Shown one piece after another: positions 1 through 14,227 of a stretch of 14,227 bases of DNA. Every line of letters starts with the position of its first letter. The stretch's first letter is position 1. A program made the translations under genes and the position numbers. Origin of the DNA: Candidatus Thorarchaeota archaeon (GTDB lineage: Archaea > Asgardarchaeota > Thorarchaeia > Thorarchaeales > Thorarchaeaceae); assembly GCA_046758445.1 (NCBI GenBank), contig JBHIAE010000067.1, forward strand, positions 1 through 14,227, written 5' to 3'. The notes under the pieces are model-generated. The model was not told the origin of the DNA and did not search any database. It saw nothing but the letters and a program-made list of their open reading frames with translations.

Positions 1-140
1 GATAGCCGCTCTGTCTGGTCCAGTCAGCTGTACGACCTCATACGGGTCAAGCTTAAAACCGGCCAGCCGACACATCTGTGGTCTTCTGTCACATCCCTGC
101 TAGAGGTTTTTCATATCGTCAGCTGTCAACACACAGGGAC

Positions 141-1076
141 ATGTCCACGGCCAGCCTCTTGCAGTGTGGTTATCAACAGTCCACACTGGCATACCCGAAG
201 ACCATCACCGTTCGAGAGAGCAGGCCGTGGATGCCCTTCCAGTCCCACGACATCCGTTTCTTTGGCAACAACAAGACCAACGTCACTCCCAAGGGCAAGG
301 ACTACGGAAGGCGGAACATCACTGACATAGGTTTTCTTCTGGACACAGTTCGAGGATGTCCATTCGCTGCTGTGTATCAGGGGCACGGTTGCTACGGCCA
401 CTGCTACCTCTCAGAGAGCATGGCCCGTTACCATATGATGTACTGGATACCAGTGAGCAACCGTCTGAACGAGCAGGCACTAAGCAGGGATCTAGAGCGC
501 ATCAACTCGGACATTGTGAGGAATGGCGTGAACGGTGAACCGTCCTGCGACTGGTCACTGGCTGCGGACACAGCCGAGTTCTGCGACCTCTTCGATAAGA
601 CCACCGTTCTCCTCACTAGGTTTGCCATCGAGCCGCATTTGCTCATTTTGGAAAGGCTGGTCAGGGCAGAGGCTATCGTACATGGCTCGGTGAGCGCTCT
701 AGATCCATCCCAGCACATTGACAGGATTCTGAGGAACCTTGAGAGGTACGAGGAGCTTGGCGGACGCATCGTCGGGCGTGTCATCACTGCATGGTTCGGT
801 GATGAGGAGTCGAAGCTTTGGGAGGTTCAAGATGACCTCATGGCACCGGACTACTCGTTCCAACAGCCCCTGAGAATCCGTGGGACCAGCCCCGCTAACA
901 GACACCTAGACTTGTCCCATTACGGCCCGACCATCTCCAACACTGACGGGCGAATCAGCAACCGTTGGAGGAGTGCCCATGATGTGGGGTATGGTACACG
1001 CGGCTGCTACAGCATGTGCTACGAGTGCCTCAACAAGTGCATGAGCCATCCTAGAGTCTGGGGGGTGTGGGAGTGA
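141..1076 (+). CDS. Radical-SAM-like Fe-S protein with non-canonical CX10CX3C motif and C-terminal CX3CX2CX3C cluster (paralog A)
   Basis: ORF 78..1076. ATG at 141 preferred because a T/A-rich TTTTCATAT lies ~25 nt upstream; start uncertain. Motifs: DTVRGCPFAAVYQGHGCYGHCY; VRNGVNGEP (GGEP-equivalent); HGSVSALD; C-terminal GCYSMCYECLNKC. Colinear with the next ORF. Confidence 0.75.
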   Translation: MSTASLLQCGYQQSTLAYPKTITVRESRPWMPFQSHDIRFFGNNKTNVTPKGKDYGRRNITDIGFLLDTVRGCPFAAVYQGHGCYGHCYLSESMARYHMMYWIPVSNRLNEQALSRDLERINSDIVRNGVNGEPSCDWSLAADTAEFCDLFDKTTVLLTRFAIEPHLLILERLVRAEAIVHGSVSALDPSQHIDRILRNLERYEELGGRIVGRVITAWFGDEESKLWEVQDDLMAPDYSFQQPLRIRGTSPANRHLDLSHYGPTISNTDGRISNRWRSAHDVGYGTRGCYSMCYECLNKCMSHPRVWGVWE

Positions 1077-2044
1077 CTGCTGAGGCAGACCTACAACAAG
1101 TGGTCCAGATGTGTCTGGATGGCACAGTCCATCTCTCAGAGGCCAAGCGACGGACGTCCAAGTGGATTGACCCTGAGACTGGACACTTCATCCCAAGGGA
1201 CATCGAGGTCCGTGGCAACTCCAAGAACCCGAGGAACACCACAGACGTCGTGTACGGGTGTCCCTACTACTCCTTCAAGAACTGTCCTTGGGGATGCTAT
1301 GCGGGGTTCGGGTGCAAGAAGCTCAGTGCTGACTTCACAACCCCTGTCGAGATGATGTTCAACCCTGATGTTCTCCGACCTCAACTCAAGAGGGTGGCTG
1401 AGAGGATAGGCTGGGTCCGAATCGGCGTGATGAGTGAGCCAGGTCTTGCATGGGACAAGGTGGTTCAGGTCTGTGATCTATCCCATAAGTATGGCGTGAC
1501 TCCTGTGGTGTTCTCAAGGCTGTGGAAGAGGCCCACTAAGGCACAGATGAGAGAACTTGTCGACAACGGCGCGATGATTCATGCCACAGTCTCAGCCTTT
1601 GACAGTGACGACTTTCTCAGTCCCAGAGCCAATGTGTGTAAGTCTTACCTTCAGTTCGGTGGTCATTTCGCATGGCGTCCAGTGTCCTTCCACTTCGATG
1701 ACACGACCTCCGAGGGTCTGCGTCTGTGGAGCAGACAGGGTCAACTGATGAACGGGGAGCTTGGTGCGACGTCTGAGAGGTCACCCTGGGTCTTGGAGAA
1801 CCCTGCCCGTGTGATGAGGGGCAAGAAGGAGTACAACCCGAACTGGAGGATTTTGGCCGAGTGGGCGTACTTCAAGGCTCCCACGACCAAGCGACACAGG
1901 TTCAGTGCTCACAACCACAACTGGACTGCTGGTGTGTTGTATGATGAGGATGCCTGCTGGGTGGGCTGCCGTGAGTGTACGGTTCAATGTCTGGTTCCCA
2001 GGGTGAGGAAGTCGAAACAGTCTTGTGTCGAGGAGTTTGTCTAA
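1073..2044 (+). CDS. Radical-SAM-like Fe-S protein with non-canonical CX7CX3C motif and C-terminal CX3CX2CX3C cluster (paralog B)
   Basis: ORF 1067..2044. GTG at 1073 overlaps the upstream TGA (GTGA) after a G-rich SD. Motifs: DVVYGCPYYSFKNCPWGCY, VRIGVMSEP, HATVSAFD, ACWVGCRECTVQC. Confidence 0.75.
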   Translation: MTAEADLQQVVQMCLDGTVHLSEAKRRTSKWIDPETGHFIPRDIEVRGNSKNPRNTTDVVYGCPYYSFKNCPWGCYAGFGCKKLSADFTTPVEMMFNPDVLRPQLKRVAERIGWVRIGVMSEPGLAWDKVVQVCDLSHKYGVTPVVFSRLWKRPTKAQMRELVDNGAMIHATVSAFDSDDFLSPRANVCKSYLQFGGHFAWRPVSFHFDDTTSEGLRLWSRQGQLMNGELGATSERSPWVLENPARVMRGKKEYNPNWRILAEWAYFKAPTTKRHRFSAHNHNWTAGVLYDEDACWVGCRECTVQCLVPRVRKSKQSCVEEFV

Positions 2045-2056
2045 CAGGTGATGGGC

Positions 2057-3529
2057 ATGATCGAAGAGGAGCCCCTGGCAAGACTCATCCGACTCCGCAG
2101 GTACGAAGAGCTTGACAACGTTGTAGATCAGCTTCTCCAAGAGTCTGGTTGGCCGCAGGTCGCATCACAACTTGAGAACATCCCCACTCCGCATGCTCAA
2201 AGCGCGGGGCCGTTGGATATACTCAGTCCCACCCACTTTGATATGCCAGGAGAACCACCACATTACATAACGGAGCAAGTCCTTGTCGATCGACCATGGT
2301 ATCTCTCCAACGAGGACGTTGGTTGGGGAGTGAGGCGCGGAACGCTCCGAGATGGCATCGTCCACATCCTCGGTCTGCAGACAGTTCTTGGGATTGACCT
2401 TGACAGCCTCAAGCCCTTCGAGGGGATACAGGCATCGAGCCTTGACGAGCTCCGTCAGAGCGCCATTCCAGTGGCCATCGATTTTCTGAGGTCGCAGGCT
2501 GCCGATCACAGGACATTCTTCTTGGACGTGGATGCGATGTCGGTTTCCCCGTTCGCGGCTGCCGTTTCAGACATAGTCGAGGCGAGGAAGAGAGAGGTCC
2601 GGGCTCTAAGCGAGGAGTCGCAGACAAACGAGGTCGTGGGGACCTACTACGGCTTCAAAGTCTTGACAGAGGGCTCCATACAGAATACTCGTCCCGTAGG
2701 ATTCGCAAGCTCTGCCCTGGAGGCACTCGATGAGATGATTCAAGCCTTGGGGAAACAGACAAGGCTTAGTCACACGAGGTTCAAGTCTTGGCGCAGGGAT
2801 ACTTCCTCATGGCTCAAAGCCTGGGAGGGCTACGATGACCTTACACAGACCCTGCTGAAGGCCATCATGCTGGTGTCAATTGGTGGTAGGAAGAGGGGAA
2901 TCCCTGAAGGGCTGAGAGTCATGGGAGTCCTCGGCGACTCTAGGGCCCTGCCCACACTCCATCGGCTCTTGGAGCTGATACCCGTTCGAAGTGACAGACT
3001 GCAAATGCTCCTGGAGGCCATCGGATGTGTTGGACATCCCAGTTCCTTCGACTACATCCTGCCGCTGGCAAAGAAGAATACTGTCGCAGGAAGGGAGGCC
3101 TTGGCGCAGATGCCTCTGATTCGCAGTCCCAAGAGCACTGAGCATCTGCTCAAGGTCTTGGCAGAGGTTACTTGGCGTCAGCAATCCATAGTGGCCACCC
3201 GCCTCTGGATGACTTTTGACAGCCGTTCTGAGGAAGTAGTACGTGCACTATGGAACCGCGTCTCTGTCACCAACGACCATCGATGGTATAGGGAAAGAAT
3301 CATGGAATTTGTGCGTGCCAGACAGGCAGTCACCTCTCTTGCCCTGATTGGAGAGGAGGGCAGGACAGTCGTGAGGAAGCACCCTGACGTCGTTGCCTCA
3401 TTGATAGAAAGATTGCCATATACCCTTGATAAGATGAGGATGTTGGTGTTGCTGCGTGCCGTCGAGGGTCTTTTGGACCACCCTACCATCGCAGCAATCT
3501 GCGAAGACGTCTCTATTGAGCGGAGATAG
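2057..3529 (+). CDS. HEAT/PBS-lyase-like repeat-containing protein with uncharacterised N-terminal domain
   Basis: ORF 2048..3529. SD AGGTGA at 2046-2051 favours ATG 2057. Repeated helical hairpins LRVMGVLGDSRALPTL, LEAIGCVGHPSSFDYIL, LAQMPLIRSPKSTEHLL are HEAT-like. Confidence 0.7.
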   Translation: MIEEEPLARLIRLRRYEELDNVVDQLLQESGWPQVASQLENIPTPHAQSAGPLDILSPTHFDMPGEPPHYITEQVLVDRPWYLSNEDVGWGVRRGTLRDGIVHILGLQTVLGIDLDSLKPFEGIQASSLDELRQSAIPVAIDFLRSQAADHRTFFLDVDAMSVSPFAAAVSDIVEARKREVRALSEESQTNEVVGTYYGFKVLTEGSIQNTRPVGFASSALEALDEMIQALGKQTRLSHTRFKSWRRDTSSWLKAWEGYDDLTQTLLKAIMLVSIGGRKRGIPEGLRVMGVLGDSRALPTLHRLLELIPVRSDRLQMLLEAIGCVGHPSSFDYILPLAKKNTVAGREALAQMPLIRSPKSTEHLLKVLAEVTWRQQSIVATRLWMTFDSRSEEVVRALWNRVSVTNDHRWYRERIMEFVRARQAVTSLALIGEEGRTVVRKHPDVVASLIERLPYTLDKMRMLVLLRAVEGLLDHPTIAAICEDVSIERR

Positions 3530-3605
3530 CCTCTCTGAAGAGAAACCCTGTCATCGTGAAGACAATCCCCTACTGGAATGATCTTCATGGGCTTCTAGCA
3601 CGGGT

Positions 3606-3839
3606 CTAATCTTCCATCTCCTCAATCCTCTCCATCAGACCAAGGAGGGCACACATGTAGACCGCATCTGGAGTATGTGGTCGAGCGAACATTGTCCCGG
3701 CATCACCGAACTTCCTTGCATACTCGAAGACCTTGTCGAGTCTGGCCTTCTCCTCTGCGGTCAACTGCCTGCGGAAGTTCTTCCACTTGGCCTCCTCAAT
3801 CCGGATTGCCTTTCTGAAGGTGGGAATGGTGCGGCCCAT
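3606..3839 (-). CDS. Small conserved archaeal helical protein (arCOG07300-like, family usually linked to PolB2 operons)
   Basis: 77 aa, MGRTIPTFR...W..FRRQL...ARLDKVF..AR...P....LL. Matches from memory the MGRTxPxxR...WxxFRRxL signature of this family. Confidence 0.7.
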   Translation of the reverse strand: MGRTIPTFRKAIRIEEAKWKNFRRQLTAEEKARLDKVFEYARKFGDAGTMFARPHTPDAVYMCALLGLMERIEEMED

Positions 3840-3911
3840 GGTGATCTAGCTGACGTCCGGTGGCGGCTCAGATAAGGACCACCAAGTCTATTAGAATCAG
3901 GTCGAATCTTT

Positions 3912-3927
3912 CAAAAGCCTTTAGAGA
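3912..3927 (+). promoter_or_regulatory. Putative archaeal BRE/TATA promoter for the tcmP-like gene
   Basis: CAAAAGCC-TTTAGAGA about 45-60 nt upstream of ATG 3973; G-rich SD GTGGGGA precedes the ATG. Confidence 0.35.
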
Positions 3928-3972
3928 CAAGGGACTGTTGGATAGAAGCGCAACATAGAGTGGGGACGATAA

Positions 3973-5631
3973 ATGGGTCTTGAGTTCAAGCATAAAGCAA
4001 TAGTTCTGAGTGGAGTGGCAGGTACCAGACTCAAGACTAAAGTCCTAGGAAGGTACTATCGCTTCTGGCACTCAGTTCAATCAGGGGGTAAACGAGGAAG
4101 CTACCGTTATCCCACCTCAATAATAGATCTAAATGCTGGCACAGGCCTTCTCTATATCAATGAGGAGCGTGAGATTATTTATGGGTCAGCAGGACATGCA
4201 TTAGAACTGAAGTATAAGTCAATAGACATCGGGACAAAGAATCTTAGCGTCTTTCTTGTAGAAGAACACGATAAGTGCAGGGAGTACCTGCTTGAAAATA
4301 TAGAGGAGGAATGGGATGTCAAGCTCCAACAACAGAAGGGCATTAGCTATCCTGTCTGGACAAATGGGGCTGTCTGGCTTTTTGAGTCAGTAAAAGACTT
4401 CCTAGAGTTCACTGAATCTGGTTCAATGATTGATAGAGGTCTATTCTTGTTCGACCCACTTCTAGCTCCAGAATATGCAGTCATCGAAAGGGTAGCTAAA
4501 AGTAGAATAAGCATTCCCTTTCAGAGAGGAACTGAGTTCATTCTCTTCTTCTTCACCTCAGACTGGGTAAATGGAAGGAAGGGCTTCTCGCCACTACCAA
4601 GAGATGCTGATGAAAGCAAATGGAAAAAAGGAGAAACAGGGAGCGCACAGATAGCCGATGTCGCGTTTGGAAATCGGGCATGGCTCAGAGTAATGGAGAT
4701 GAATGGTTCATCTGATGTACTTCAAGACTCGCTCCTATTAGCCTATGAGATGAAACTAAGGAAATGGTTCAGGCTAGTATTACCAATACCATTTCAGCCC
4801 AAGAAAGGCCAGACTTACCACATTCTGTGCTGCTCAAACTACGAGGTGGGGATAAATCTAATTCGTTCCGAGTGGGAACACCTTGTCGGGATACACAAAG
4901 GTGAGAGAGTCCGCTCTGGAGTAATTGACCTGGCCAAGGATGTTTTTCCGCGATTCTCTGCTGAATATCCAGGGATAATGCTCTCAAGAAAGAAGGGGCA
5001 AAAACGACCCTCGGAATGGAGGGTCCTGTGGAAGGTTGCGAGAGAGTTCGCTGACGGAACCTGTGATCAGAACTGCAAGAGTCTAATCGATATTGCAGGA
5101 AGCTCTGCAGAAGTTGAGCGGTGTCTAGAATGGTCTGAGTCTGAAGGATTCCTCACTAGAGAAACCAAGATTCCATGGGCATGGGCAAAGCATCCTCAGT
5201 TTCCAAGATTTCGCGCGAACTACAACCGTCTAAACGAAGTGCTTGGAATATCGCTTCCTCTTCCAATGCGACCTTTGACAGCAGACGCATTGGCCTTCCA
5301 AAAAGGGGAACAAGATACTGAGTTCCTAAGCCCAAGAATCGATGGTCTTGAGATTGATGTAAGGTTCCGTTGCCCGAAATGTAATGATCTGGTTGTTTCG
5401 GATGGAGCGATTACGATTCTCCCACCATATTTTGCTGCTGATTCTGATGCTAAGTCAATACGGGAAGATTGGGAAACATTATGGTGCCAGAACAGAGATT
5501 GTGAGGAAGAGTATTCTCTACATTGGGTCCATTCAATGTATACTGGGCTCTACTTCCGAATTGAGGACACAAAGAAAGATCATCCCTTCTGGTACAGGGA
5601 ATTATCACTGTACGAAGATGAAGAACCATAG
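3973..5631 (+). CDS. tcmP: Three-Cys-motif partner protein TcmP-like (SAM-binding methyltransferase fold + winged helix) with C-terminal Zn-ribbon extension
   Basis: N-terminal K..VL..YY..W; motif-I-like IIDLNAGTG; GSAGHAL; LVEEH; LFLFDP; TEFILFF; YHILCCSN..G. Adjacent to a three-Cys radical SAM gene, as is typical for the family. C-terminal CPKC...CQNRDC. Confidence 0.75.
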   Translation: MGLEFKHKAIVLSGVAGTRLKTKVLGRYYRFWHSVQSGGKRGSYRYPTSIIDLNAGTGLLYINEEREIIYGSAGHALELKYKSIDIGTKNLSVFLVEEHDKCREYLLENIEEEWDVKLQQQKGISYPVWTNGAVWLFESVKDFLEFTESGSMIDRGLFLFDPLLAPEYAVIERVAKSRISIPFQRGTEFILFFFTSDWVNGRKGFSPLPRDADESKWKKGETGSAQIADVAFGNRAWLRVMEMNGSSDVLQDSLLLAYEMKLRKWFRLVLPIPFQPKKGQTYHILCCSNYEVGINLIRSEWEHLVGIHKGERVRSGVIDLAKDVFPRFSAEYPGIMLSRKKGQKRPSEWRVLWKVAREFADGTCDQNCKSLIDIAGSSAEVERCLEWSESEGFLTRETKIPWAWAKHPQFPRFRANYNRLNEVLGISLPLPMRPLTADALAFQKGEQDTEFLSPRIDGLEIDVRFRCPKCNDLVVSDGAITILPPYFAADSDAKSIREDWETLWCQNRDCEEEYSLHWVHSMYTGLYFRIEDTKKDHPFWYRELSLYEDEEP

Positions 5632-5814
5632 GTTCATTCACTGTAGAAATAATAGGGGGCTGAACTTACGAGTTTTTCAATGTGTGAGATGATGATTATT
5701 TGATGGAGTGTGTTGTGACTGACAATTGCATCATCGAGCGAACTCTTTCTCCAAGAAGCCACATCCAAGGGAGGGTGTATCCGAGCGATTAAGGGGACAT
5801 TTGCTAATTATAAG

Positions 5815-6738
5815 ATGCTTGACGGGACTTTACAGCGAAGGCTCAGAAAGATAGGAAGCGGGTCAATCATCAAGAGATTCGAAATGACGCCCTATCCTCG
5901 TAAGGAAGCTGATGTCGTCTGTCCACACTTTCTGGAGCTGAAATGGGGATACGGATGCCCATACGACTGTTCCTGGTGTTTCTTGAAGGGCACTCTTAGA
6001 ATGTTGCCTGAGAAGACTGCACCGAAGACTAAACCGAGGGATAAGGTCAAGAAGCATGTGCTGTCAGCTATCAAGTACAAATCACATCCAGAGATGTTCA
6101 ATACCGGTGAACTCTGCGACTCATTGATGGACGAGAGAGGAGCTGTGCCATTCTCAAAGTGGATAATTGATATCTTTGAGTCTCAGAATACGCACAAGGT
6201 CTTGTTCCTCACGAAGTCGTCATACGTAAAGCGACTCCTCAAAGTAGAGAAGCATAGGCAGGCTGTCATTAGTTTCAGCATCAACGCGGAGAAGGTGTCG
6301 AGGAAGTGGGAACGAGCCCCATCCGTAAGGAAGCGCATAGAAGCTGCTTCCAGACTATCAGAAGAAGGGTGGGAGGTCAGAGTGAGGATTGATCCGATGG
6401 TCCCACTTCCTGATTGGAGGGAAGCATATGCCAATCTTGTCGACCTCTTGTTCACAAGTCTGACCCCCAACAGAGTCACGCTTGGCACTCTTCGTGGACT
6501 GCAATCAACGCTGAATAACGTGAAAGACCATTCATGGATCAAGTATCTAGATGGTGACAACTCAGGTTGGGGAAAGAAGACTAATGATGATCTAAGAGAA
6601 AAGATGTACCAATGGATGTTTTCTCTATTGGAACCTCATATGTCCCTCAAGCATGTGGGCCTATGTAAGGAAACGCTCAGGATGATTCGAACATTGGGTC
6701 TTGATTTCAGGGAGCAAGTCTGCAATTGTATTCTGTGA
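5815..6738 (+). CDS. Spore-photoproduct-lyase-family (SPL-like) radical SAM protein
   Basis: Canonical CX3CX2C (GCPYDCSWCFL), FNTGELCDSL, FLTKS, SFSIN, RIEAA, RVRIDPMV, TLGTLR, C-terminal LCKE...CNC. The frame is open upstream to a CTG at 5719 (possible true start). Confidence 0.85.
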   Translation: MLDGTLQRRLRKIGSGSIIKRFEMTPYPRKEADVVCPHFLELKWGYGCPYDCSWCFLKGTLRMLPEKTAPKTKPRDKVKKHVLSAIKYKSHPEMFNTGELCDSLMDERGAVPFSKWIIDIFESQNTHKVLFLTKSSYVKRLLKVEKHRQAVISFSINAEKVSRKWERAPSVRKRIEAASRLSEEGWEVRVRIDPMVPLPDWREAYANLVDLLFTSLTPNRVTLGTLRGLQSTLNNVKDHSWIKYLDGDNSGWGKKTNDDLREKMYQWMFSLLEPHMSLKHVGLCKETLRMIRTLGLDFREQVCNCIL

Positions 6739-6776
6739 CCACTGCGTCCACTGAGTTATCAACTCTCAACGTCCTT

Positions 6777-8069
6777 TCAAGGGTGTCTTTGGTCTGAGTC
6801 TAGCCAGTTGGACAATCTAGCATTCAGCTTGTTCCTCTCCTGCCGGTTAGAGTCGACTTTGAGAGTATAATCAATAAGCCCTCCTCTAATGTTGAAGAGG
6901 ATTAGATAAGCTCTAAGGGCATTAGATGTAATCCAAAACAGTTCATTGACCAAGGATGTGTTCTTTGATTCGAATGAGGCTCCATGAACCAGAGGGCCTC
7001 TGACTGATCTGTGGATCTTCTTCAGTTTCTTCTCAACTTCAGCACGCTGACTCTCCGAAGTGCTAGTAATACTAGCAATTCTTGACGCCATGTCTTTGCC
7101 CCCAGTTCGAACAATTGTTTCTAGAATAATGGAGAGGTCTACTACCTCATCCTCAATGAAGTCGTTGCAGATTGCACGATTGTACCTCCGCAGAGACCTA
7201 AGCAGCCGTGGGACTTCTTCATGGTGCATTCTGACTGCCTTTCTCAGTCTTCTATGCAACTTTATCAGGAGCTTCCTTTGTGCGTGGTTCAAGATGAATT
7301 TGGAGTCCCATCTTCTGCTGAAGGCAGCTGGATGCACATCAGGTCTAGTGTTATGATGTAGGCTTATTACAACCGTACCCTTTCGTGGGCTCTCGTCGTT
7401 AGTCACCTGGTTCACACCAACGGAGCTAGGTGATAAGAGTCGGAGAGAACTCACCAAGAGGTCAAACTCTGGCAGAATATCACCTCGAATCATCTGTCTT
7501 GGTCCCTTGGCCCCAGTGCTCTTCCTTGAGGTCTTTGTGGTAGGCATCGTTTCCGCAATGACCTCCGCCCCAGTTCTCCCTCCAATAGCAAGACCCTGAC
7601 TGATGAAGTATGCCCTCTCAATAGGAGTGGCCTTTCTCAGGCGTAAGGGGCCATCAATGTCAACGATCTCATCATCCATCTCGAGTTGCTGGACATAGCA
7701 CCAGAACCTTCCCAGAGGTATCTTGACTAACGAGCAACTATTCAGGTCCTCAAGTGCATGTTCCAGATTCTTCGGATTGACCTCTGGAGGTCCATCAGGT
7801 AGGAAACACTCGGAAACAAGGCGACTGATGACTTTTGATAACGCTGCATCTAGCCCTTCACTACTCATGACTTCAAGCTGCCGAGTTTTAGCTGCCGCTT
7901 CTCGGATAAGTTCAATTGTTTGCTTCATCTCACTTGAGTCTTGGAGGATGCTCTCAATAGCAAAGATGGCAGTGGGTCCATATTTACGTGATTCAAGCCT
8001 CTCAATAGTAATCTCCAATAGTCGTTTAAACGAGTCTTGGAGCCTATTCATTGCATCAGCATCATTCAT
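6777..8069 (-). CDS. ApeA-like HEPN domain protein (putative RNase toxin/defence effector)
   Basis: C-terminal SLRRYNRA...EDEVVDLSIILETI...RIA...LKKIHRSVRGPLVHG carries the HEPN Rx4H motif (RGPLVH at 6984-7001) plus the upstream conserved Glu. Confidence 0.75.
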   Translation of the reverse strand: MNDADAMNRLQDSFKRLLEITIERLESRKYGPTAIFAIESILQDSSEMKQTIELIREAAAKTRQLEVMSSEGLDAALSKVISRLVSECFLPDGPPEVNPKNLEHALEDLNSCSLVKIPLGRFWCYVQQLEMDDEIVDIDGPLRLRKATPIERAYFISQGLAIGGRTGAEVIAETMPTTKTSRKSTGAKGPRQMIRGDILPEFDLLVSSLRLLSPSSVGVNQVTNDESPRKGTVVISLHHNTRPDVHPAAFSRRWDSKFILNHAQRKLLIKLHRRLRKAVRMHHEEVPRLLRSLRRYNRAICNDFIEDEVVDLSIILETIVRTGGKDMASRIASITSTSESQRAEVEKKLKKIHRSVRGPLVHGASFESKNTSLVNELFWITSNALRAYLILFNIRGGLIDYTLKVDSNRQERNKLNARLSNWLDSDQRHP

Positions 8070-8147
8070 CGATATCCCAATAGTTCAGGGAATAGCCTAG
8101 TTCTCATATCAAGGTTCTTTCAGAAGATGTGCAGTTCGCTACCGTGA

Positions 8148-8329
8148 ATTTAGTCATTGATGTCATCCAAGGAATAGTCAAGTCGAGTCAGTTCTTCACT
8201 CACTGAAGATGGAGGCGGCGATCTGCGACAGGACCCTGACCGGTCTACCGGATGAGTCTGATAAGACCAAACGAGAGGGATTTGCATCGACTTTTCATCC
8301 CCCGTCACTATTCTAGAATGATACTAAAT
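8148..8329. other. Candidate structured non-coding element (nested multi-helix fold)
   Basis: Seven mutually compatible complementary segments found by eye in the intergenic region between divergent genes (see findings). Confidence 0.4.
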
Positions 8330-8360
8330 CATTATCATTAGAAGTCCCGTTGAAGGAATC

Positions 8361-8714
8361 ATGACAGATGATGCCAGAGCCACTGAAAAGCAGATACGGT
8401 ATATCGGATTCTTGGTCAATGGCGAATATTCTGTTCCAACTGATGCAAAGATAGTTGAAGGTTATTTAACACAATTGGGTGGAGAGTCAATTGCAGACCT
8501 CACAAAGGAAGAGGCATCGAACCTAATTGATAGGCTACAGGCAAGACCAACAGAATATTCCTTTGTCTGTGGCAGGAAAGGAATGGTTGCAAGGTGGGAA
8601 GTGGGTAAGTTCATTACTACCGGGGACCTTGAGGCGTGTTCCCATGCATGTCCACTCGAGATTGACCCCAATGGCTGTGATGAATTTCAAGACTATTATC
8701 GACAAGAAATGTAG
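8361..8714 (+). CDS. Small hypothetical protein with ATEKQ...LTKxEASxLIDxL helical module and Cys-rich C-terminus
   Basis: 117 aa. AAGGA SD before ATG. ATEKQIRYI and LTKEEASNLIDRL motif; Cys pattern C...CSHAC...C. Confidence 0.7.
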   Translation: MTDDARATEKQIRYIGFLVNGEYSVPTDAKIVEGYLTQLGGESIADLTKEEASNLIDRLQARPTEYSFVCGRKGMVARWEVGKFITTGDLEACSHACPLEIDPNGCDEFQDYYRQEM

Positions 8715-9010
8715 TGAAATGCTGAGAGGGAAGGATTTCGTTCCTGTATTCACACCCAAAATCGCAGAACTCATAAAGCTAGTTGAGTGCAAGGTCACAG
8801 TAGCGTGCTTCGGGGTAGGGTGGCAAGACTTCTGTCCATTCCTCCAAGAGAAGAATGAAAGAGGTAGTTAGAATTGGCAAATGTTAAGACATACTGGGGT
8901 CCATTAGCCAGCTGCTACAAGACTTTCCGTCGAGTCCACCATCACAGGGCTTGTGTGAAACTTGGAATCATCAATTGTATCGATTCACAAGCACCTTGAC
9001 TGTGAGGAGA

Positions 9011-10156
9011 TCAATGTCCAATGACTCGCTCCCGCGAAGTGAGCGAGTGCCTCTCTTGGCACTGATTTTCCACGACCCAAGAGACAATGACTACTCGTCT
9101 ATCCCACTCTTGCATCTCGTCCATCAATACAAGTAGAAATGGGAAATTCATGACGGAGATGTGGTAGATAGAGTCGCAATTATGCGATGCTATTGACCTC
9201 AGGATGTTGTTTCGAATGATGAACTGAAGTGCGTCTTCAGGTTTCAAGTTCTTGACACGATCTAGCTGAAAATCGGTTTCCAAAAAATACACCAGACTTC
9301 TCATCAGTATGACACAACTCAGGACGCCGTGGTCATAGGAGTCTAATGCAACCATGAACTTGTGGTAGTATTTCGGCTGGACATGTACAGCGAACTCGTC
9401 ACTACTGTCGTCAACTCTCTTGATTGATGAAGAGGTCACCTTGAGAACTTGATCGCAAATGTTCTGGAACATTGGAGATACAACATACTCAAGTTCCTTG
9501 ACTGATAGCTTGCCTATTTGCTCAAAGGTGCTACGCACTGCCCTATTAAGGTCATAGATGTTCTCAAGCGCAAGGCCAAGATCATGACAAAGGGCTATGA
9601 AGCACCACATCGCCTCCTTTTCTTCCTCAGAAATCTCGAAAGCGAACTGCTTGTCACCGATTTCTATTTCCACATCACTGAATTCAGAGTCACCACACTC
9701 GATTCTTGCGAAACCTATTGAACTGTCCGAGAATATCCGCCAGCCTAGAAGAAACGTTCTAATGACATGCACAATGTGGTCTCTCGTTCTCTCAAGAATG
9801 GGAGAAACTGACTTTTCGAAACTTCCGATCCCATCGAACACTCTAGCCAGTTTCTCCACCCCAAATGCGAAAGCATCATGATAGTCTCGTTCTCGATAGT
9901 CCTTGTGCTTGAGGTACACAATTGCATCTTGGAGCAACGTTTCCCATAATCGGAATACTTTGTCCACCTGTTCACTGAGTGGAGTGTCAGATGACAGATT
10001 ACCAATGGCCTTGAATGTTCTGTTCTGCTTGGTTGTCTTCTTACGAATCTTATCTGCGAATCCGATGAATTTGCTTCGTTTGTATTGCTGCTGAAACTCG
10101 TCAATTAGCTTCTTGTCATCTTCAACTTTGAGGAGTATTGTAGTGCTCGAAGTCAG
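9011..10156 (-). CDS. HD-domain metal-dependent phosphohydrolase
   Basis: RDHIVH...ALCHDLG...DHGVLS...IASHN...LLVLMDEMQEWDR is a full HD metal-binding set. The ORF track starts at GTG 9967, but the frame is open to CTG 10156, which overlaps the upstream stop (CTGA) 9 nt after GGAGG; 381 aa if so. Confidence 0.8.
   Translation of the reverse strand: MTSSTTILLKVEDDKKLIDEFQQQYKRSKFIGFADKIRKKTTKQNRTFKAIGNLSSDTPLSEQVDKVFRLWETLLQDAIVYLKHKDYRERDYHDAFAFGVEKLARVFDGIGSFEKSVSPILERTRDHIVHVIRTFLLGWRIFSDSSIGFARIECGDSEFSDVEIEIGDKQFAFEISEEEKEAMWCFIALCHDLGLALENIYDLNRAVRSTFEQIGKLSVKELEYVVSPMFQNICDQVLKVTSSSIKRVDDSSDEFAVHVQPKYYHKFMVALDSYDHGVLSCVILMRSLVYFLETDFQLDRVKNLKPEDALQFIIRNNILRSIASHNCDSIYHISVMNFPFLLVLMDEMQEWDRRVVIVSWVVENQCQERHSLTSRERVIGH
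9024..9048. repeat. Short inverted repeat/hairpin at the 3' end of the HD gene
   Basis: ACTCGCTC (9024-9031) / GAGCGAGT (9041-9048), perfect 8-bp arms around CCGCGAAGT. Confidence 0.55.
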
Positions 10157-11166
10157 AAGACATCGCCTCCGATCTTGGACTGCACGTAGTCTTCTCCCGT
10201 TACGACTTGATGGACGGCTCCAGCATTGGTCAATGTTTGAGCTGGACAGGCATCAAGTCCCTGTGTCGACAGCTCAGAATACATTTGCCTTGCTTGGTCT
10301 ATCTTTGCTCTAGTCCATTGACAGTTCCATGCACTCTGCAGAGACTCGTCAAAGACATTTGGCCCATCTTGTACCGTTGCCAGTTGCTTGAACGCCTCGC
10401 AAATTGCCAGTGTCCCATCTGGAAGAATCGTCATCCGACAACCAAGCGTACACTCCTTCCCCTTGGTTTGAAAACCTAAGAATGAGAATGGCGCTCCCAA
10501 CCTTAGGAATGAGCGTTTCGAGTCGTCGAAACTCCGAAGCTTCCTAAGCATTAGAGCCAAGTCATATTTAGTAGGTTCAAGAAACGTGCGATTTGTCAAA
10601 CCTCGCCCTTGAGGTACGAATCTCAAAAGGCTCAGTCGATTTACTCTTTCATTTAGGGCGATATCCACAGTTTCGGCCAAGCGCGGAATGTTCTGATGTA
10701 AAGGAACAGTGTGAATTGAACATCTCGCACCTAGGTCCCTAATCTTTCTCAATGCATCCATGGTAAGGTCGAAGCTTCCAAGAACCCCAGTCAGGCGGTC
10801 ATGAATCGTTCTAGGTCCATGAATGCCGAAAACTACTTCATCAGCCAGCGCTGCAATGGATTCTGCGAGTGGATTACCCACGACCTCCAACTTGCTGGAC
10901 GTTACCTCCGAAACAATGCCAGTGGTGTAAACGATAGCCATCAATCCACGTCTTTTGACATGTTCCAAGACTCTCAGAAATCCCGGGTACATTAGAGGCT
11001 CTCCACCCGACAAACAAATCTTCTTCCCGCCGATATCAACAGTCTGATCAACAACATCAATCCAATCGGCTTGGCTGACATAATGAGAGCATTTCGGACT
11101 GGCATCTGATGAACAGAACCCGCACCAAAGAGGGCACTTCTTAGTGAGTTCCAGTGTAATCTCCAT
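10153..11166 (-). CDS. Radical SAM protein with SPASM/twitch-type C-terminal domain
   Basis: ELTKKCPLWCGFC (CX3CX2C), LSGGEPL, HDRLTGVLGSF, RFVPQGRG, CTLG..MTILPDG...IC...NV...L...W, terminal CPAQ. SD GGGGAG upstream. Confidence 0.9.
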   Translation of the reverse strand: MEITLELTKKCPLWCGFCSSDASPKCSHYVSQADWIDVVDQTVDIGGKKICLSGGEPLMYPGFLRVLEHVKRRGLMAIVYTTGIVSEVTSSKLEVVGNPLAESIAALADEVVFGIHGPRTIHDRLTGVLGSFDLTMDALRKIRDLGARCSIHTVPLHQNIPRLAETVDIALNERVNRLSLLRFVPQGRGLTNRTFLEPTKYDLALMLRKLRSFDDSKRSFLRLGAPFSFLGFQTKGKECTLGCRMTILPDGTLAICEAFKQLATVQDGPNVFDESLQSAWNCQWTRAKIDQARQMYSELSTQGLDACPAQTLTNAGAVHQVVTGEDYVQSKIGGDVF

Positions 11167-11178
11167 GTCTACTCCCCT

Positions 11179-11802
11179 CTATCCATTCTGAAGTGTTCTC
11201 GCAGTTCGAATAAGGTTTCTGAAGTAAGTAGGATATCTCTCTCTAGGAAGATGACCACCTCCACCTCGAACTGAATACCCAGGATGATATGCATGTACTA
11301 TGCGTGTGCCACATTCCATACGCAGTCTGCGTATCAGAGCACTCAAGTTTCCTCGCGCAAACTGTTCCCAGACTGTCCGCCCCAGTGCCACTACTAGTTC
11401 TGGTCGTATCAAGTCGAGTTCTTCCATCAGATACTCAGTGCAATTCTTGATCTCTTCTCTTGTGGGTGGTCTGTTTCTCCCAGTGGAGTCTTGTGGATTA
11501 CATTTGACGATATTTGTAACAAAGGCGATGAGGCGTGGATGCTTAAGAGTGGGTTCTGATTCTCTCGATAGTCCAGACAGAATCATCGCTTCCTGCAAGA
11601 GCCTTCCTGACGGGTCTCCCGTAAAGGGAATGCCTGTTTTATCTGCACCATTCCTGCCAGGAGCAAGTCCAACGAGCATGATGGCACTATCTGGCTTTCC
11701 ATATCCGGGAACAATCCTTTTTCGTGTCTTCACCAGTTCTGGACATCTGCTACAGCATACTCTTTTGCACCTGTCAAGCATGGTTCCTTGTTCCGCCTCC
11801 AT
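11179..11802 (-). CDS. udg: Uracil-DNA glycosylase superfamily protein, family-5 (UdgB)-like, 4Fe-4S
   Basis: CSRC...PGYG...MLVGLAPGRNGADKTGIPFTGD (family-5-like motif A), TNIVKC.P...NRPPT.EEI.NC, VVALG, YHP motif B. Start may be the second Met (MLDRC). Confidence 0.88.
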   Translation of the reverse strand: MEAEQGTMLDRCKRVCCSRCPELVKTRKRIVPGYGKPDSAIMLVGLAPGRNGADKTGIPFTGDPSGRLLQEAMILSGLSRESEPTLKHPRLIAFVTNIVKCNPQDSTGRNRPPTREEIKNCTEYLMEELDLIRPELVVALGRTVWEQFARGNLSALIRRLRMECGTRIVHAYHPGYSVRGGGGHLPRERYPTYFRNLIRTARTLQNG

Positions 11803-12040
11803 ACGCCCATGGCGATAGGAATAGAAGCTTCAGGTGTCTAAAGTATTTGTCGTCTAACAGACCGAAAGCAACCAGCTACCGATGGTTCCATGACCTCCAA
11901 AATCATCGGATCCGTGTCTGCAAGTGGCCTAATATTCCCGTCAAAAGACTGAGAACCACGTATGAGCCAAGCTTGTCACAAAGGCGCGTTTCAAGACTCT
12001 TGATTCTACCCGACATCCGGGTAATCCAGAAGCTATAGAC

Positions 12041-12268
12041 ATGGATAATGAATTCGAGGAGAAACGAACAACAGCTGGCCGACTTCATGCAATGCTTGAG
12101 CATTTGAAGGTGCTTAAGACATCGTCATTTGAGCAACAGTTGAGCAATCAGATAATCAAAATGAAACCTGCGGCTTATGATTCCGATGCTGCTAGAATAC
12201 ACACTTCTGAAGACGCAATTCGCTGTGAACAGTATCTTGGGATACTGATGCGGATTCTTTTCTCATGA
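12041..12268 (+). CDS. Possible small hypothetical protein or gene remnant
   Basis: 75-aa ATG-started ORF in an otherwise empty ~700-bp interval; no recognisable motif. Confidence 0.25.
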   Translation: MDNEFEEKRTTAGRLHAMLEHLKVLKTSSFEQQLSNQIIKMKPAAYDSDAARIHTSEDAIRCEQYLGILMRILFS

Positions 12269-12397
12269 CATATGGTGGCATCAAGTGAAATTCTGTGAAA
12301 AAAGAAGATGTGGCAACATGTAGGGTGTGTAAGTACCGAGCTTCGGCGAGGTATTCAGCTCACCGCTACTAATGTCCGAGGCGTGTAGTTTGAAAAC

Positions 12398-12427
12398 GTG
12401 ATTCGCGCAGTACCTAGAGTTGTCAAG
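12398..12427 (+). repeat. 30-bp direct repeat, copy 1
   Basis: GTGATTCGCGCAGTACCTAGAGTTGTCAAG; 29/30 identical to 14198-14227. Confidence 0.9.
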
Positions 12428-12522
12428 GTTTGAGTAGTTGTAAAGTGATTGCTTCCATCCTATGCAGGTCAACCTCAATGGTGTCTTCATTTCCACATTG
12501 ACTGATAACATGAGAATTCATC

Positions 12523-14055
12523 TCATAGTCTGTGCTTTGACAAATACACCACTCTATCTTTCCATTCGCGCGAGTAGGGTGGGCCATAACCATGTATCTC
12601 TTCCCTCAAGTTTTCGAGAGGTCCATCGGATTTCAATTCATCATCGAAAAATCCTTCCAGAAAGCCACGAAGGCCTGAAGCTTTCAGGAGATCTTCTCCT
12701 TTCTTATGTGTCGCAACAGTGCCCAGTATCATCATAGCAGCAGCCCTATAGCTAGCTCTCTCATCTTGAAGTGACTCTCCCACATAGGCGACCGCATCCT
12801 CTCCCAGTTCGTCTACCATGATTGCAGTGTCTACGTAGGTCTCCTCAGGCCATTCTCTGTCCGAAATGAACTCGTGTCTAAGCAACCACCCTCGCTCCAC
12901 GTGAGACGCGGCAAGGTCTAGAAGTGGCCCTAGGGCCTTCATGTTTGGAAAGATTCTGAAGTAGCTAGTGACACCGTTCTGCACTCTTCTGTTCTCAGTC
13001 TTCAGACGTTCAATTATAGCGTCATCCTCTCCCTTGAGATTGAGGCTCTCAAGCAGCTCTCTCTGTTCCGAGGCAGACCCGCAAAATAGCGAGCCGATGA
13101 GAGTCATATCAAGTGCTGATGGATGATTCTCCTCAGCCAAATAGTCAGCAACTGCCTTAATCGCTCCAGTGTACTCCCACCTGAAACCATCTCTGAGGTA
13201 TTCTACAAGAAGGTCTGCGCTATTTCCTCCTATTCTTCGTAGCATGTCCAACACTATATTCCCATCTTCTGTTAGGACAAGCTCGAGAAGACTCGGGACT
13301 GCGTCTTCTCCAATGCTTACAATTGCGTCAATAATTCTCGAATCATAGTAGGGCCTCTCAAAGACACATTGGAACGTGGCATGGTACCAGTCAAAGTGCT
13401 TCAGCAGCTCGTCAACAGCATCACCACGGAGAACTCCTGCGAGTCCCTTGGCGGCCCATTCTCCAAGTGTACCTCTGTGATAGACCGGGTCATCCCACAC
13501 AAGTGTTTCAAGGAATCTCCTGTAGATGGGGATCATAGACTCAGGATTATTCTTCAGGACTATTCTCTCTGCTATTTCAACTGTGTCTAATGAAGACCCT
13601 TCGAGGTAGGCTTGTGACTTACAGCCTTCTTCCCATGTTGCATGCCACCTTAGACCATTGAGATAGTCCAAAGCTAAGCCAGGAACTGCAGGATTGTCCA
13701 TGCCTTCTAATGCTGCAAGGCACCTACCATGAATCTCAGACGTAATCTCTGTCTGCTTAATACTATTCCACCGAGGATCAAAACGACCCCACCGGAGATC
13801 AATACGCCTGGGCCACTTAAGACTGAAAGTCCATTCACTGGTTAGTATTCGTTTTAGGTATTCAAACGCGTCTTGGTCATTACGCTCGCTCAGTTCGTCT
13901 ATTGCAAAAATCAAGACCTCTGCCCGAGGGGTTCCTCTATCTGTTACGAGAACGCTACTTCTGGGACCGACGATACTCTCCAACCTATCTATGTACTCGA
14001 AGACACTGATAGTTCTAAATATGAACGAATTCTCTACTTTCTGCACAGGTGTCAC
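12523..14055 (-). CDS. HEAT/PBS-lyase-like repeat protein
   Basis: 510 aa. Repeats such as AAKGLAGVLRGDAVDELL, IDAIVSIGEDAVPSLL, LRRIGGNSADLLV, ELGEDAVAYVGESLQDERASYRAAAMMILG. Possible CTG start at 14067. Confidence 0.75.
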   Translation of the reverse strand: MTPVQKVENSFIFRTISVFEYIDRLESIVGPRSSVLVTDRGTPRAEVLIFAIDELSERNDQDAFEYLKRILTSEWTFSLKWPRRIDLRWGRFDPRWNSIKQTEITSEIHGRCLAALEGMDNPAVPGLALDYLNGLRWHATWEEGCKSQAYLEGSSLDTVEIAERIVLKNNPESMIPIYRRFLETLVWDDPVYHRGTLGEWAAKGLAGVLRGDAVDELLKHFDWYHATFQCVFERPYYDSRIIDAIVSIGEDAVPSLLELVLTEDGNIVLDMLRRIGGNSADLLVEYLRDGFRWEYTGAIKAVADYLAEENHPSALDMTLIGSLFCGSASEQRELLESLNLKGEDDAIIERLKTENRRVQNGVTSYFRIFPNMKALGPLLDLAASHVERGWLLRHEFISDREWPEETYVDTAIMVDELGEDAVAYVGESLQDERASYRAAAMMILGTVATHKKGEDLLKASGLRGFLEGFFDDELKSDGPLENLREEIHGYGPPYSREWKDRVVYLSKHRL

Positions 14056-14138
14056 TGTGTCTTTCAGTCTACATCCCTACCCTCTGCATTGGCAATAGGA
14101 TTCACTAAGCATATTGTCGTAGCGAAGATGTGCAGATA

Positions 14139-14221
14139 AACTCCTTAGTACTGAGTTACTTCTTGCTGTGAGTGTTTGAACAACCACGTCAAGAGAAGTG
14201 ACTCGCGCAGTACCTAGAGTT
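14139..14221 (+). repeat. Long imperfect inverted repeat bounded by AAC...GTT (attC-like hairpin)
   Basis: AACTC/GAGTT; TAGTACTG/CAGTACCTA (one extra base); GAGTTACTTC/GAAGTGACTC (one G-T); TTG/CAA; inner GTG/CAC. Confidence 0.6.
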
Positions 14222-14227
14222 GTCAAG
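14198..14227 (+). repeat. 30-bp direct repeat, copy 2 (runs to the window edge)
   Basis: GTGACTCGCGCAGTACCTAGAGTTGTCAAG, exactly 1800 bp from copy 1. Confidence 0.9.

Follow-up and report, generated by a model that had tools for sequence, protein, structure and literature searches.

Among enzymes of the radical SAM superfamily, those that act on DNA are, to our knowledge, very few, and the DNA repair enzyme spore photoproduct lyase (SPL; SplB; PF20903) is the textbook case. It is a single-domain radical SAM barrel that carries the CX3CX2C cysteine motif and has no C-terminal four-cysteine (Cys4) site. Non-canonical cysteine spacings occur in genuine radical SAM enzymes as well, for example in ThiC, HmdB and QueE. 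The DUF5131 proteins are common in phages and mobile elements, and we know of no study in which their chemistry has been characterised or SAM cleavage by them demonstrated. As for radical SAM genes in tandem, the nearest described arrangement is presumably the Radical SAM mobile pair A/B (TIGR04471/TIGR04470), by its name an annotated but uncharacterised radical SAM gene pair on mobile DNA. In the RadicalSAM.org classification, DUF5131 (PF07505; the phage Gp37/Gp68 'three-Cys-motif' proteins) corresponds to megacluster 5-2 and shares megacluster 5 with SPL (PMC9477430).

Here, we analysed a stretch of 14,227 nt from a Candidatus Thorarchaeota archaeon (GCA_046758445.1, contig JBHIAE010000067.1, positions 1-14,227, forward strand), referred to below as the window, which carries near its start two overlapping genes, A and B (Table 1). 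We consider it somewhat probable that they are two anciently duplicated members of an unnamed branch of radical SAM enzymes and that their products act jointly on DNA. The stretch is present in three DNA datasets, all of them hydrothermal vent metagenomes from a single study, and no RNA datasets carrying it are listed. The likely start of gene A is ATG 141, since its homologues start there, and a longer frame from GTG 78 is disfavoured because it would enter the end of an IS110 element. The GTGA overlap between the two genes, reported in a first-pass annotation of the sequence, was read directly; B also has an alternative start at GTG 1067, which gives a 10-nt overlap with A. The same annotation had considered the two proteins paralogous on the strength of a series of peptide pairs. 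Every one of these peptides was found in the translations, and BLASTP aligned A and B with 26% identity over 281 residues (E 3e-19), far above chance. Between the three copies of the pair present in this genome, dN/dS is 0.09-0.11 for A and 0.11-0.20 for B, with a value of 0.11 between the two intact copies of B; A and B are real genes under purifying selection.

Table 1. Coordinates of the features of the A/B locus within the 14,227-nt window.
Feature	Position	Strand	Description
IS110-family terminal ~120 nt	1..120		Just upstream of gene A
Gene A	141..1076	+	ATG 141 to TGA 1076; 311 aa; radical-SAM-like, A clade
Cluster loop of A	357..404	+	C73-X10-C84-X3-C88, then Tyr
GGE-like motif of A	516..545	+	VRNGVNGEPS; at and after predicted strand 2
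C-terminal CX3CX2CX3C of A	1005..1040	+	C289-X3-C293-X2-C296-X3-C300; candidate second metal site, Fe-S or Zn
A stop/B start overlap	1073..1076	+	GTGA; direct sequence reading
Gene B	1073..2044	+	GTG 1073 to TAA 2044; 323 aa; radical-SAM-like, B clade
Cluster loop of B	1259..1297	+	C63-X7-C71-X3-C75, then Tyr
GGE-like motif of B	1415..1444	+	VRIGVMSEPG; conserved in A/B alignments
C-terminal CX3CX2CX3C of B	1955..1990	+	C295-X3-C299-X2-C302-X3-C306
PIP-like tail of B	2018..2041	+	QSCVEEFV; one aromatic residue only
Third gene	2048..3529	+	493-aa helical HEAT-like protein; co-oriented, 3 nt after B

The unusual cysteine spacings that had been read in the two proteins (CX10CX3CY in A, CX7CX3CY in B and CX3CX2CX3C at the end of each) were confirmed in the translations, and the cysteines proved to be conserved in homologues. 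Among 71 diverse family members, C73 and C88 of A are present in all (71/71) and C84 in 67/71, while C63, C71 and C75 of B are invariant in an alignment of 62 sequences. Across the whole family the motif takes the form C-X(3-15)-C-X3-C-[Y/F], of which CX3CX3CY is the shortest version, and the canonical CX3CX2C spacing is absent; the number of strictly conserved cysteines at the position of the SAM cluster is three, not four. The GGE-like motif, with the family consensus G-x-x-G/S-D/E-P-S, is equally well kept in the 71 members (G129 in 71/71, D/E133 in 70/71 and P134 in 67/71). At the C-terminal Cys4 site, 16 A and B homologues have C289 and C293 without exception, and at least 90% of them have C296 and C300; the alignment of 62 sequences gives C299 and C306 of B as invariant and C302 as present in at least 90%. 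This last motif is more variable in the wider family, being only CX2CX3C in the phage group and missing from one bacterial group.

Both proteins were modelled using AF2 (pLDDT 77.9 for A; pLDDT 92.8 and pTM 0.88 for B). The models consist of alternating strand-helix units, with the cysteine triads directly after the first core strand and the GGE-like motif on predicted strand 2; in A, the loop cysteines are placed between a predicted strand (residues 70-72) and a predicted helix (residues 89-96). Model confidence in the Cys4 region is low in A and 91-95 in B. When A was compared with solved structures using VIA-align, the best match was SPL (4fhc; Z 12.4 over 231 residues), followed by PFL-AE (12.2), and about the first 38 rows were exclusively radical SAM enzymes. 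SPL 4fhc was also the best match of B (Z 13.7 over 246 residues; runner-up 11.9), for which the first 44 rows were exclusively radical SAM. Foldseek returned HydE and SPL for A at E 1e-4 and listed ordinary TIM-barrel enzymes too among the matches of B; the highest TM-scores of both models, 0.45-0.48, were obtained with SPL 4fhc, all TM-scores being below 0.5. The radical-SAM-like identity proposed from the sequence is borne out by the TIM-barrel-type core of both models and by the roughly 40 top VIA-align matches of each; as modelled, A and B have a radical-SAM-like fold. A search of PDB sequences with 16- and 71-member profiles gave no meaningful match.

The first-pass annotation had recognised no described family with this arrangement, and indeed no curated family model covers A or B. 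Neither protein was recognised by the models of Pfam, NCBIfam, PHROG or PADLOC, and the models for radical SAM enzymes (including PF04055), for SPL (PF20903, TIGR04070), for DUF5131 (PF07505) and for the Radical SAM mobile pair (TIGR04471, TIGR04470) gave no score on them even at E 0.1. Among the 71 relatives, weak matches were limited to three for PF04055 (best E 1.3e-4), one for PF07505 (E 0.009), and two and one distant relatives for TIGR04471 and TIGR04470, respectively. Another lead, GP88 (PF17338), came from a language model with a score of 0.94; its Foldseek row was weak (E 0.049) and the Pfam model had no match among the 71 family members. A profile search extended the family, which we refer to as CXnCX3C, to at least 225 clusters, and no paper on it was found in a literature search.

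DUF5131 is the sole named family with a detected sequence link to A and B, a remote one by profile comparison, and the kinship pointed to at first reading is in this sense real but distant. In hhalign, the 71-member profile matched DUF5131 at 93.5% (E 2.2e-7) over 91 N-terminal columns only; this alignment spans the Cys loop, strand 2 and strand 3 and brings the GGE-like motif of A together with the second-strand motif of DUF5131. The 16-member A/B profile reached 35% (E 4e-4), and control profiles remained at or below 1.4%. The two families have in common a stretched first Cys spacing, a C-Y-A ending of the motif, an association with mobile elements or phages and the lack of characterisation. 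They differ in that five Asgard DUF5131 proteins show C-Xn-C-X2-C-YA, whereas the A/B family has C-Xn-C-X3-C-[YF]; in addition, homology is seen in the N-terminal third only, and A and B, unlike DUF5131, carry the C-terminal Cys4 site and have no adjoining TcmP (TIGR04474) partner. SPL resembles A and B in size, in its single-domain barrel and in a plausible DNA substrate, but differs from them in its cluster spacing and in having no Cys4 site. The PF20903 model, when used to search the genome, found a gene at 5815-6738 of the window alone. Comparison of the 71-member profile with a 16-member profile of this SPL-like gene gave 1.3%, and comparisons with the SPL-like gene and with the SPASM-type protein of the window as single sequences were not significant, so a close kinship of A and B with either gene was rejected.

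The ancient duplication proposed in the first-pass annotation is upheld by the tree, in which A and B form separate, well-supported sister clades (aLRT 98-99) and the B clade is old and diverse. The duplication, an old one, is restricted to Thorarchaeota. The order A-then-B and the overlap are retained even between pairs with only about 45% identity in their A proteins; the GTGA junction recurs in the other two copies of this genome (on contigs C19 and C96) and in genomes G134 and G108, and is replaced by TAGTG in genome G152. Conservation of the pair holds within Thorarchaeota but not family-wide, the phage and other Asgard relatives being single genes, and A-type and intermediate genes were found alone in several genomes. 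Since single-copy relatives exist, the fold does not require a partner. The three copies of the pair in this genome adjoin IS110 elements and lie in variable islands. Protein identity between them is 82-87% for B versus 92-94% for A, B being the faster-evolving of the two. The copy of B on C96 is degraded, with an in-frame TGA and loss of the E-P of the GGE-like motif, and B is truncated in both copies of G152. Where the pair is intact, each of its two proteins retains the cluster Cys triad, the Cys4 site and the GGE-like motif.

The surroundings of the pair are variable, IS-rich, defence-island-like DNA. The IS110 end upstream of A has copies with 82-94% identity on contigs C96, C53, C86 and C2 of the same genome; on C53 it adjoins a 378-aa transposase (PF01548, E 2.4e-28; PF02371, E 2.2e-25), and it is because of this repeat that the contig ends here. 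The third gene accompanies the pair on C96 (83% identity), is present on C19 with its first 140 residues only, and has a copy on C82 (66% identity) with no pair adjoining. Its product gave no match in Pfam, and its Atlas structure compares with HEAT proteins at TM 0.44-0.46. It is an optional companion and not a fixed partner of A and B. Further downstream, the gene at 3973-5631 has a weak, sub-threshold similarity to TcmP (E 6e-10); it adjoins the SPL-like gene and not A/B, and no TcmP-like neighbour was seen at other A/B loci. Among 13 Asgard loci, no neighbours are conserved besides the pair itself.

The phage relatives, examined in 154 IMG/VR viral loci, sit among genes for YqaJ, ERF, DnaB, primase and NinG, and in 107 of the loci the relative is directly adjoined by a protein of about 460 aa resembling N6/N4-methylases. 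This methylase-like partner is fused to the radical-SAM-like enzyme in one protein (P0077), and further fusions join the family to an ATP-dependent DNA ligase domain (P0116), to an amidohydrolase and to TauD. The phage proteins share the Cys triad and the GGE-like motif with A and B and belong to the same family. Unlike A and B, they are single-copy, measure about 250-270 aa, end in CX2CX3C and have a methylase-like neighbour or fusion, a feature that the Thorarchaeota pair does not show; a search of this genome, 92.7% complete, did not find the partner. Kinship of the methylase-like partner with the 493-aa protein or the TcmP-like protein of the window was ruled out (control hhalign, at most 1.4%). 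A tblastn search with A as the query found nothing among 50,697 phage records. The phage relatives form a different sub-branch, so that the transfer of their context to the Thorarchaeota pair is an extrapolation.

A second possible connection with DNA is found at the C-terminus of B. Of about 14 complete B-type tails, 8 carry the motif Qxx[LIVM]xxF and about 6 lack it or have it in degenerate form; among A-type tails it was seen in one aberrant sequence only. The B-clade tails are similar to the end of Fen1 of this genome (QSSLTDFF). Compared with the PIP-box Qxx[LIVM]xx[FY][FY], the tail of B has one aromatic residue instead of two, with V at position 4 in the window copy; the copy on C19 ends in QTTLEEFKI, again with a single aromatic. 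A search of this genome for NucS, as a second PIP reference, found none.

The support for action on DNA is solely indirect and comes from this PIP-like tail and from the phage neighbours and fusions; the pair might instead be radical SAM enzymes with another substrate, such as a nucleotide, a small metabolite, a protein or a peptide, the DNA context of the relatives not being transferable. The fusions to an amidohydrolase and to a TauD dioxygenase point to small-molecule chemistry in some branches, the Asgard copies have no conserved neighbours, and the PIP-like tail is an imperfect match that part of the B-type proteins lack. We nevertheless regard a non-DNA substrate as unlikely, given that a DNA repair enzyme is the best structural match of both proteins, that the phage relatives are strongly linked to the methylase-like protein (107 of the 154 loci, and a fusion), that a fusion to a DNA ligase exists and that the tail is specific to the B clade. 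As to the chemistry itself, we consider it quite unlikely that A and B have the fold and not the reaction: the cysteines strictly kept where the SAM cluster sits number three and not four, the GGE-like motif is conserved at strand 2, the roughly 40 best VIA-align matches are exclusively radical SAM enzymes, and ThiC, HmdB and QueE are genuine radical SAM enzymes with variant spacing. Under the hypothesis of a fold without the reaction, the cysteines would be ligands of zinc or of a structural or redox Fe-S cluster, and A and B would act as hydrolases, lyases, binding proteins or scaffolds; the non-canonical second Cys spacing, the failure of PF04055 to match, the ordinary TIM-barrel enzymes listed by Foldseek for B and the fact that, as far as we know, the related DUF5131 has never been biochemically characterised would be in keeping with it.

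A further question is whether both paralogs are catalytic. One of them could be a regulatory, targeting or decaying subunit or, at the extreme, the product of a redundant, neutral duplication. In favour of this, B alone bears the PIP-like tail, it evolves faster (82-87% identity between copies versus 92-94% for A), it is degraded on C96 and truncated in both G152 copies, and A-type or intermediate genes stand alone in several genomes. On the other hand, all three motifs are retained in both proteins of intact pairs, dN/dS of B is as low as 0.11 between its two intact copies, and the B clade is old and diverse, which leads us to consider a single catalytic paralog very unlikely.

A DNA-directed radical enzyme pair, although unproven, is the best reading, and one towards which we lean slightly. 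From the fold and the motifs, we infer that the Cys triad after strand 1 (C-Xn-C-X3-C) would hold a [4Fe-4S] cluster and that the G-x-x-G-D/E-P-S motif after strand 2 would aid SAM binding. SAM would then be reductively cleaved to yield a 5'-deoxyadenosyl radical, which would abstract a hydrogen from the substrate, and the C-terminal Cys4 motif may hold a second metal centre. A and B would be co-transcribed and probably translationally coupled, and their products most likely cooperate, be it as a hetero-oligomer or by carrying out successive steps. DNA is the most likely substrate, and the PCNA-docking-like tail of B could bring the pair to the sliding clamp for lesion repair or base modification. 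A bolder version of this proposal, which we consider tentative and rather unlikely, is that the family constitutes a new class of DNA-directed radical enzymes, which in phages would carry out an undescribed DNA modification alongside the amino-methyltransferase-like partner or as a fusion with it, and in Thorarchaeota would, after duplication, form an obligate A/B heteromer that is carried on PCNA by the tail of B and modifies or repairs DNA at the replication fork.

The CXnCX3C family is separate, with its own invariant cluster motif and neither a database model nor a solved relative, and three lines tie it to DNA transactions, namely the phage methylase-like link, the ligase fusion and the clamp-docking-like tail. 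If the chemistry is confirmed, the family could bring to light a new reaction that modifies or repairs DNA, and the DUF5131/SPL branch of the superfamily would become experimentally accessible. If the clamp-riding heteromer were true, it would be the first known radical SAM enzyme tethered to a sliding clamp. The Thorarchaeota pair offers a natural case for the division of work in a duplicated radical enzyme.

The peptide pairs and cysteine spacings that the first-pass annotation had quoted for genes A and B of the window were all found as given in the two proteins, and the GTGA common to the end of A and the start of B was read in place (see table). The proteins share 26% identity over 281 residues (BLASTP, E 3e-19), thus the proposed paralogy is not a product of chance. 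Gene A likely starts at the ATG at position 141, because its homologues start at the same residues and the 120 nt that precede it belong to an insertion sequence. The homologues of A and B carry the name Candidatus Thorarchaeota. The window makes up the entire contig C67 (14,227 nt) of a metagenome-assembled Thorarchaeota (Asgard) genome, whose 113 contigs sum to 3.25 Mb, with 92.7% completeness and 3.95% contamination.

Features of the window and of related loci
Feature	Position	Remarks
IS110-family element end	1-120	window
Gene A	141-1076	311 aa
GTGA common to A end and B start	1073-1076	
Gene B	1073-2044	323 aa
Gene 3	2048-3529	493 aa, HEAT-like helical protein; 3 nt after B
TcmP-like gene and SPL-like radical SAM gene	3973-6738	adjacent
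SPASM-type radical SAM gene	rest of window	adjoins family-4 UDG
HEAT proteins	rest of window	
Structured intergenic repeat	12323-12475, 14198-14227	
Same repeat, contig C53	L044 2312-2462	90-97% identity
IS110 repeat and transposase, contig C53	L044 3865-5141	
B copy, contig C96	L008 3348-4259	minus strand
B matches, Thorarchaeota genome G152	G152:C14:3044-3349, G152:C8:1144-1449	
Phage ~460-aa neighbour, example	L188:4616-6004	among IMG/VR loci L048-L205

Both proteins were modeled with AlphaFold2, A from a 16-sequence alignment (pLDDT 77.9, pTM 0.81) and B from 62 sequences (pLDDT 92.8, pTM 0.88), and strands and helices alternate in both models. An exhaustive structural comparison against 48,161 PDB representatives ranked the spore photoproduct lyase (SPL) 4fhc first for A (Z 12.4, 231 residues, rmsd 4.0) and for B (Z 13.7, 246 residues, rmsd 4.4), followed by PFL-activating enzyme, viperin, SkfB, BlsE, SuiB, lysine 2,3-aminomutase, NifB and others, all rows down to about the 38th for A and the 44th for B being radical SAM enzymes. 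Foldseek was in accord for A, with HydE and SPL at E 1e-4; for B its matches were weaker and more mixed, with SPL again showing the top TM (0.48). In the models, the likeness to solved structures is remote (TM < 0.5) but specific to the radical SAM fold, as the annotation of both proteins as radical-SAM-like had anticipated. In radical SAM enzymes the cluster loop is held between the first core strand and the helix that follows it, and the GGE motif lies at strand 2. The models of A and B agree in placing the first of the conserved cysteines right after the first core strand, the second and third at the start of the following long helix, and V-R-x-G-V-x-G/S-E-P on and after strand 2.

The annotation had recognised no described family with this arrangement, and indeed neither protein matched any Pfam, NCBIfam, PADLOC or PHROGs model at E 0.1, apart from a chance-level match of B to the NCBIfam model HybA (E 0.026; 13.6 bits, where the cut-off is 263); a comparison of the family profiles with PDB sequences gave nothing meaningful. 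When 1.84 billion representatives were searched with a profile, 225 clusters were retrieved at E < 1e-3, 67 of them below 1e-30. Motif conservation was counted in 71 diverse, near-full-length members: C73, C88, G129 and Q230 (numbering of A) are invariant, while C84 is kept in 67, D/E133 in 70, P134 in 67 and R245 in 68. The cluster motif is in all cases C-X(3-15)-C-X3-C with Tyr or Phe as the next residue, so that even its shortest form, CX3CX3CY, exceeds the canonical CX3CX2C by one residue. Three groups were distinguished by their C-terminus, one with CX3-4CX2CX3C that takes in the A and B clades, a large phage group with CX2CX3C, and a bacterial group of ~330-350 aa that carries C-L-P-x4-C-Y-G-N-C-F and has no C-terminal cysteines. 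The search for homologues thus upheld the cysteine triad as a family feature; the C-terminal cysteine motif turned out to be variable, the pair was found in few Asgard genomes, and the phage relatives are single genes. Searched with the models of Pfam, PHROGs and NCBIfam, the 71 members gave sporadic weak matches only (Radical_SAM in 3, DUF5131 in 1, rSAM_mob_pairA in 2, rSAM_mob_pairB in 1 and phrog_13321 in 2), indicating that a curated model for the family is absent.

As a reference for DUF5131, we used a small alignment of five Asgard proteins retrieved with PF07505, whose motif is G-C-x(3-6)-C-x2-C-Y-A. The hhalign alignment of the 71-member profile to it has a probability of 93.5% (E 2.2e-7), and its 91 columns span the Cys loop, strand 2 (GDPS vs M-x-D-L-F) and strand 3 (T-K). 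Used by itself, the A/B profile of 16 members reached 35% (E 4e-4) in the same region. Control comparisons of the 71-member profile, with the 16-member SPL-like family of the window and two unrelated proteins, gave 1.4% or less. At the level of sequence profiles, A and B thus appear as remote relatives of DUF5131, although neither matches its family model nor carries its C-x2-C-Y-A motif. In RadicalSAM.org, DUF5131 is megacluster 5-2, beside SPL as 5-3 (PMC9477430), a neighbourhood that fits the SPL-like structure and the DUF5131 sequence link of A and B. A language-model search, taken as a lead only, returned mostly unnamed viral clusters, plus GP88 and Radical_SAM/DUF5131 clusters. We place A and B in the radical SAM superfamily, as members of a family that has no name and lies close to DUF5131 and SPL.

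Six profile matches in the genome of the window form three A-then-B pairs, in the window, on contig C96 and at the end of contig C19. The ends of C53 and C19 share exactly 55 identical nt inside gene A, an overlap typical of an assembly k-mer junction, and therefore the two contigs are probably one locus split by the assembler at the repeated gene. The three copies share ~88% DNA identity, and dN/dS lies at 0.09-0.11 in A and at 0.11-0.20 in B, indicating purifying selection on both. In the B copy of C96, a W codon has become an in-frame TGA stop and S-Y-S replaces S-E-P in the GGE-like motif; this copy is thus decaying, the adjoining A being intact. Among 301 Asgard genomes, the proteins occur in 20, namely 15 of the 76 genomes in the family to which the window belongs, 4 of 28 in a second family and the window's genome itself, and were not found in the remaining families sampled; many of the matches fall at the end of a contig or contain stop codons. 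Subfamily HMMs identified A+B pairs in four genomes and, in five more loci, single genes of A type or intermediate between A and B; a fifth genome, G108, is represented by a pair junction with GTGA, located where a contig ends. In a quick maximum-likelihood tree, the B clade (16 rows, aLRT 99) is sister to a clade of A and the single genes (25 rows, aLRT 98; join aLRT 89), which places the duplication before the spread of the A and B clades within Thorarchaeota and agrees with the old duplication proposed earlier. The reading of A and B as radical-SAM-like paralogs of old origin is supported. The GTGA junction recurs in the pairs of G134 and G108, whose A proteins are 43-46% identical to that of the window, and reads TAGTG, not GTGA, in G152. 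This kept overlap is the main evidence suggesting that the two products would be made together. The B matches of G152 cover only profile positions 17-118 and sit in long open frames of 281 and 490 aa, suggesting that the N-terminus of B recombined onto something else.

Just after its C-terminal four-cysteine motif, B ends in QSCVEEFV, and the C19 copy in QTTLEEFKI; the Fen1 of the same genome, a classical PCNA client, ends in QSSLTDFF. The motif Qxx[LIVM]xxF was found at this position in 8 of ~14 B-type proteins with a complete C-terminus, with near-variants in three more, and in no A-type protein save one with an aberrant end. We call this tail PIP-like only, because the second aromatic residue is absent. 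From the annotation we retain as inferences an auxiliary cluster, an A/B heteromer and a DNA substrate, the last being hinted at by this tail, by the gene context of phage relatives and by some of the fusions.

The repeated IS110 end explains the contig start at position 1 of the window. Copies lie on C96, C53, C86 and C2, at least five in the genome, and on C53 the repeat abuts a transposase (DEDD_Tnp_IS110, E 2.4e-28; Transposase_20, E 2.2e-25). The IS end lies ~20 nt before the ATG of A in the window and on C96, and A may be transcribed from a promoter there; the third copy has instead a TATATAA box ~25 nt upstream of the ATG. Gene 3 accompanies two of the three pairs and also occurs elsewhere without them: its family has eight matches in the genome (C96, C82, C19 and C47 among the contigs), including a full copy on C82 with no adjoining radical-SAM pair and the N-terminal 140 residues only on C19. 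Further along the window, the TcmP-like protein (TIGR04474, E 6e-10, below cut-off) is encoded directly upstream of the SPL-family gene, which has a canonical CX3CX2C and >1,300 metagenome homologues. The structured intergenic repeat recurs on C53 and is thus a dispersed genome repeat, not specific to the locus. Other copies lie near weak AbiTii-like or HEPN-like genes, and the regions flanking the Asgard copies otherwise show no conservation. Overall, the single gene or gene pair appears as a unit complete in itself, located in islands that are variable and rich in IS elements.

In viruses, the CX2CX3C-type relative was always a single gene (154 IMG/VR loci), and in 107 of these loci its immediate neighbour encodes a ~460-aa protein, which lies upstream in 87, downstream in 18 and one gene further off in 2. 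This neighbour is strongly conserved (identity per column averages 70% in a sample of 15 sequences), with F-G-G-G and C-P-P-Y-Y motifs and a weak match to N6_N4_Mtase (E 0.004). YqaJ exonuclease, ERF, DnaB helicase, primase-helicase, NinG and terminase were also found nearby, the setting being that of a replication and recombination module. A search of the 92.7% complete genome of the window did not find this methylase-like partner, which also showed no kinship with the 493-aa and TcmP-like proteins of the window. In P0077 (746 aa) the enzyme is fused to this methylase-like protein, the C-terminal half matching phage ParB-methyltransferase genes, and in P0116 to an ATP-dependent DNA ligase domain (E 1e-19). 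Fusions to an amidohydrolase (P0118) and a TauD dioxygenase (P0122) count against a uniform DNA role of the family; the C-terminal cysteines are wholly absent from the bacterial group with these fusions.

This analysis adds how large the family is, the rule that its motif follows and the link to DUF5131; for the pair, it adds the number of copies, the analysis of selection and the IS110 setting. Further additions are the methylase-like partner seen in phages and the fusion proteins, and the phage enzyme with its ~460-aa neighbour looks like an undescribed two-gene candidate for DNA modification.
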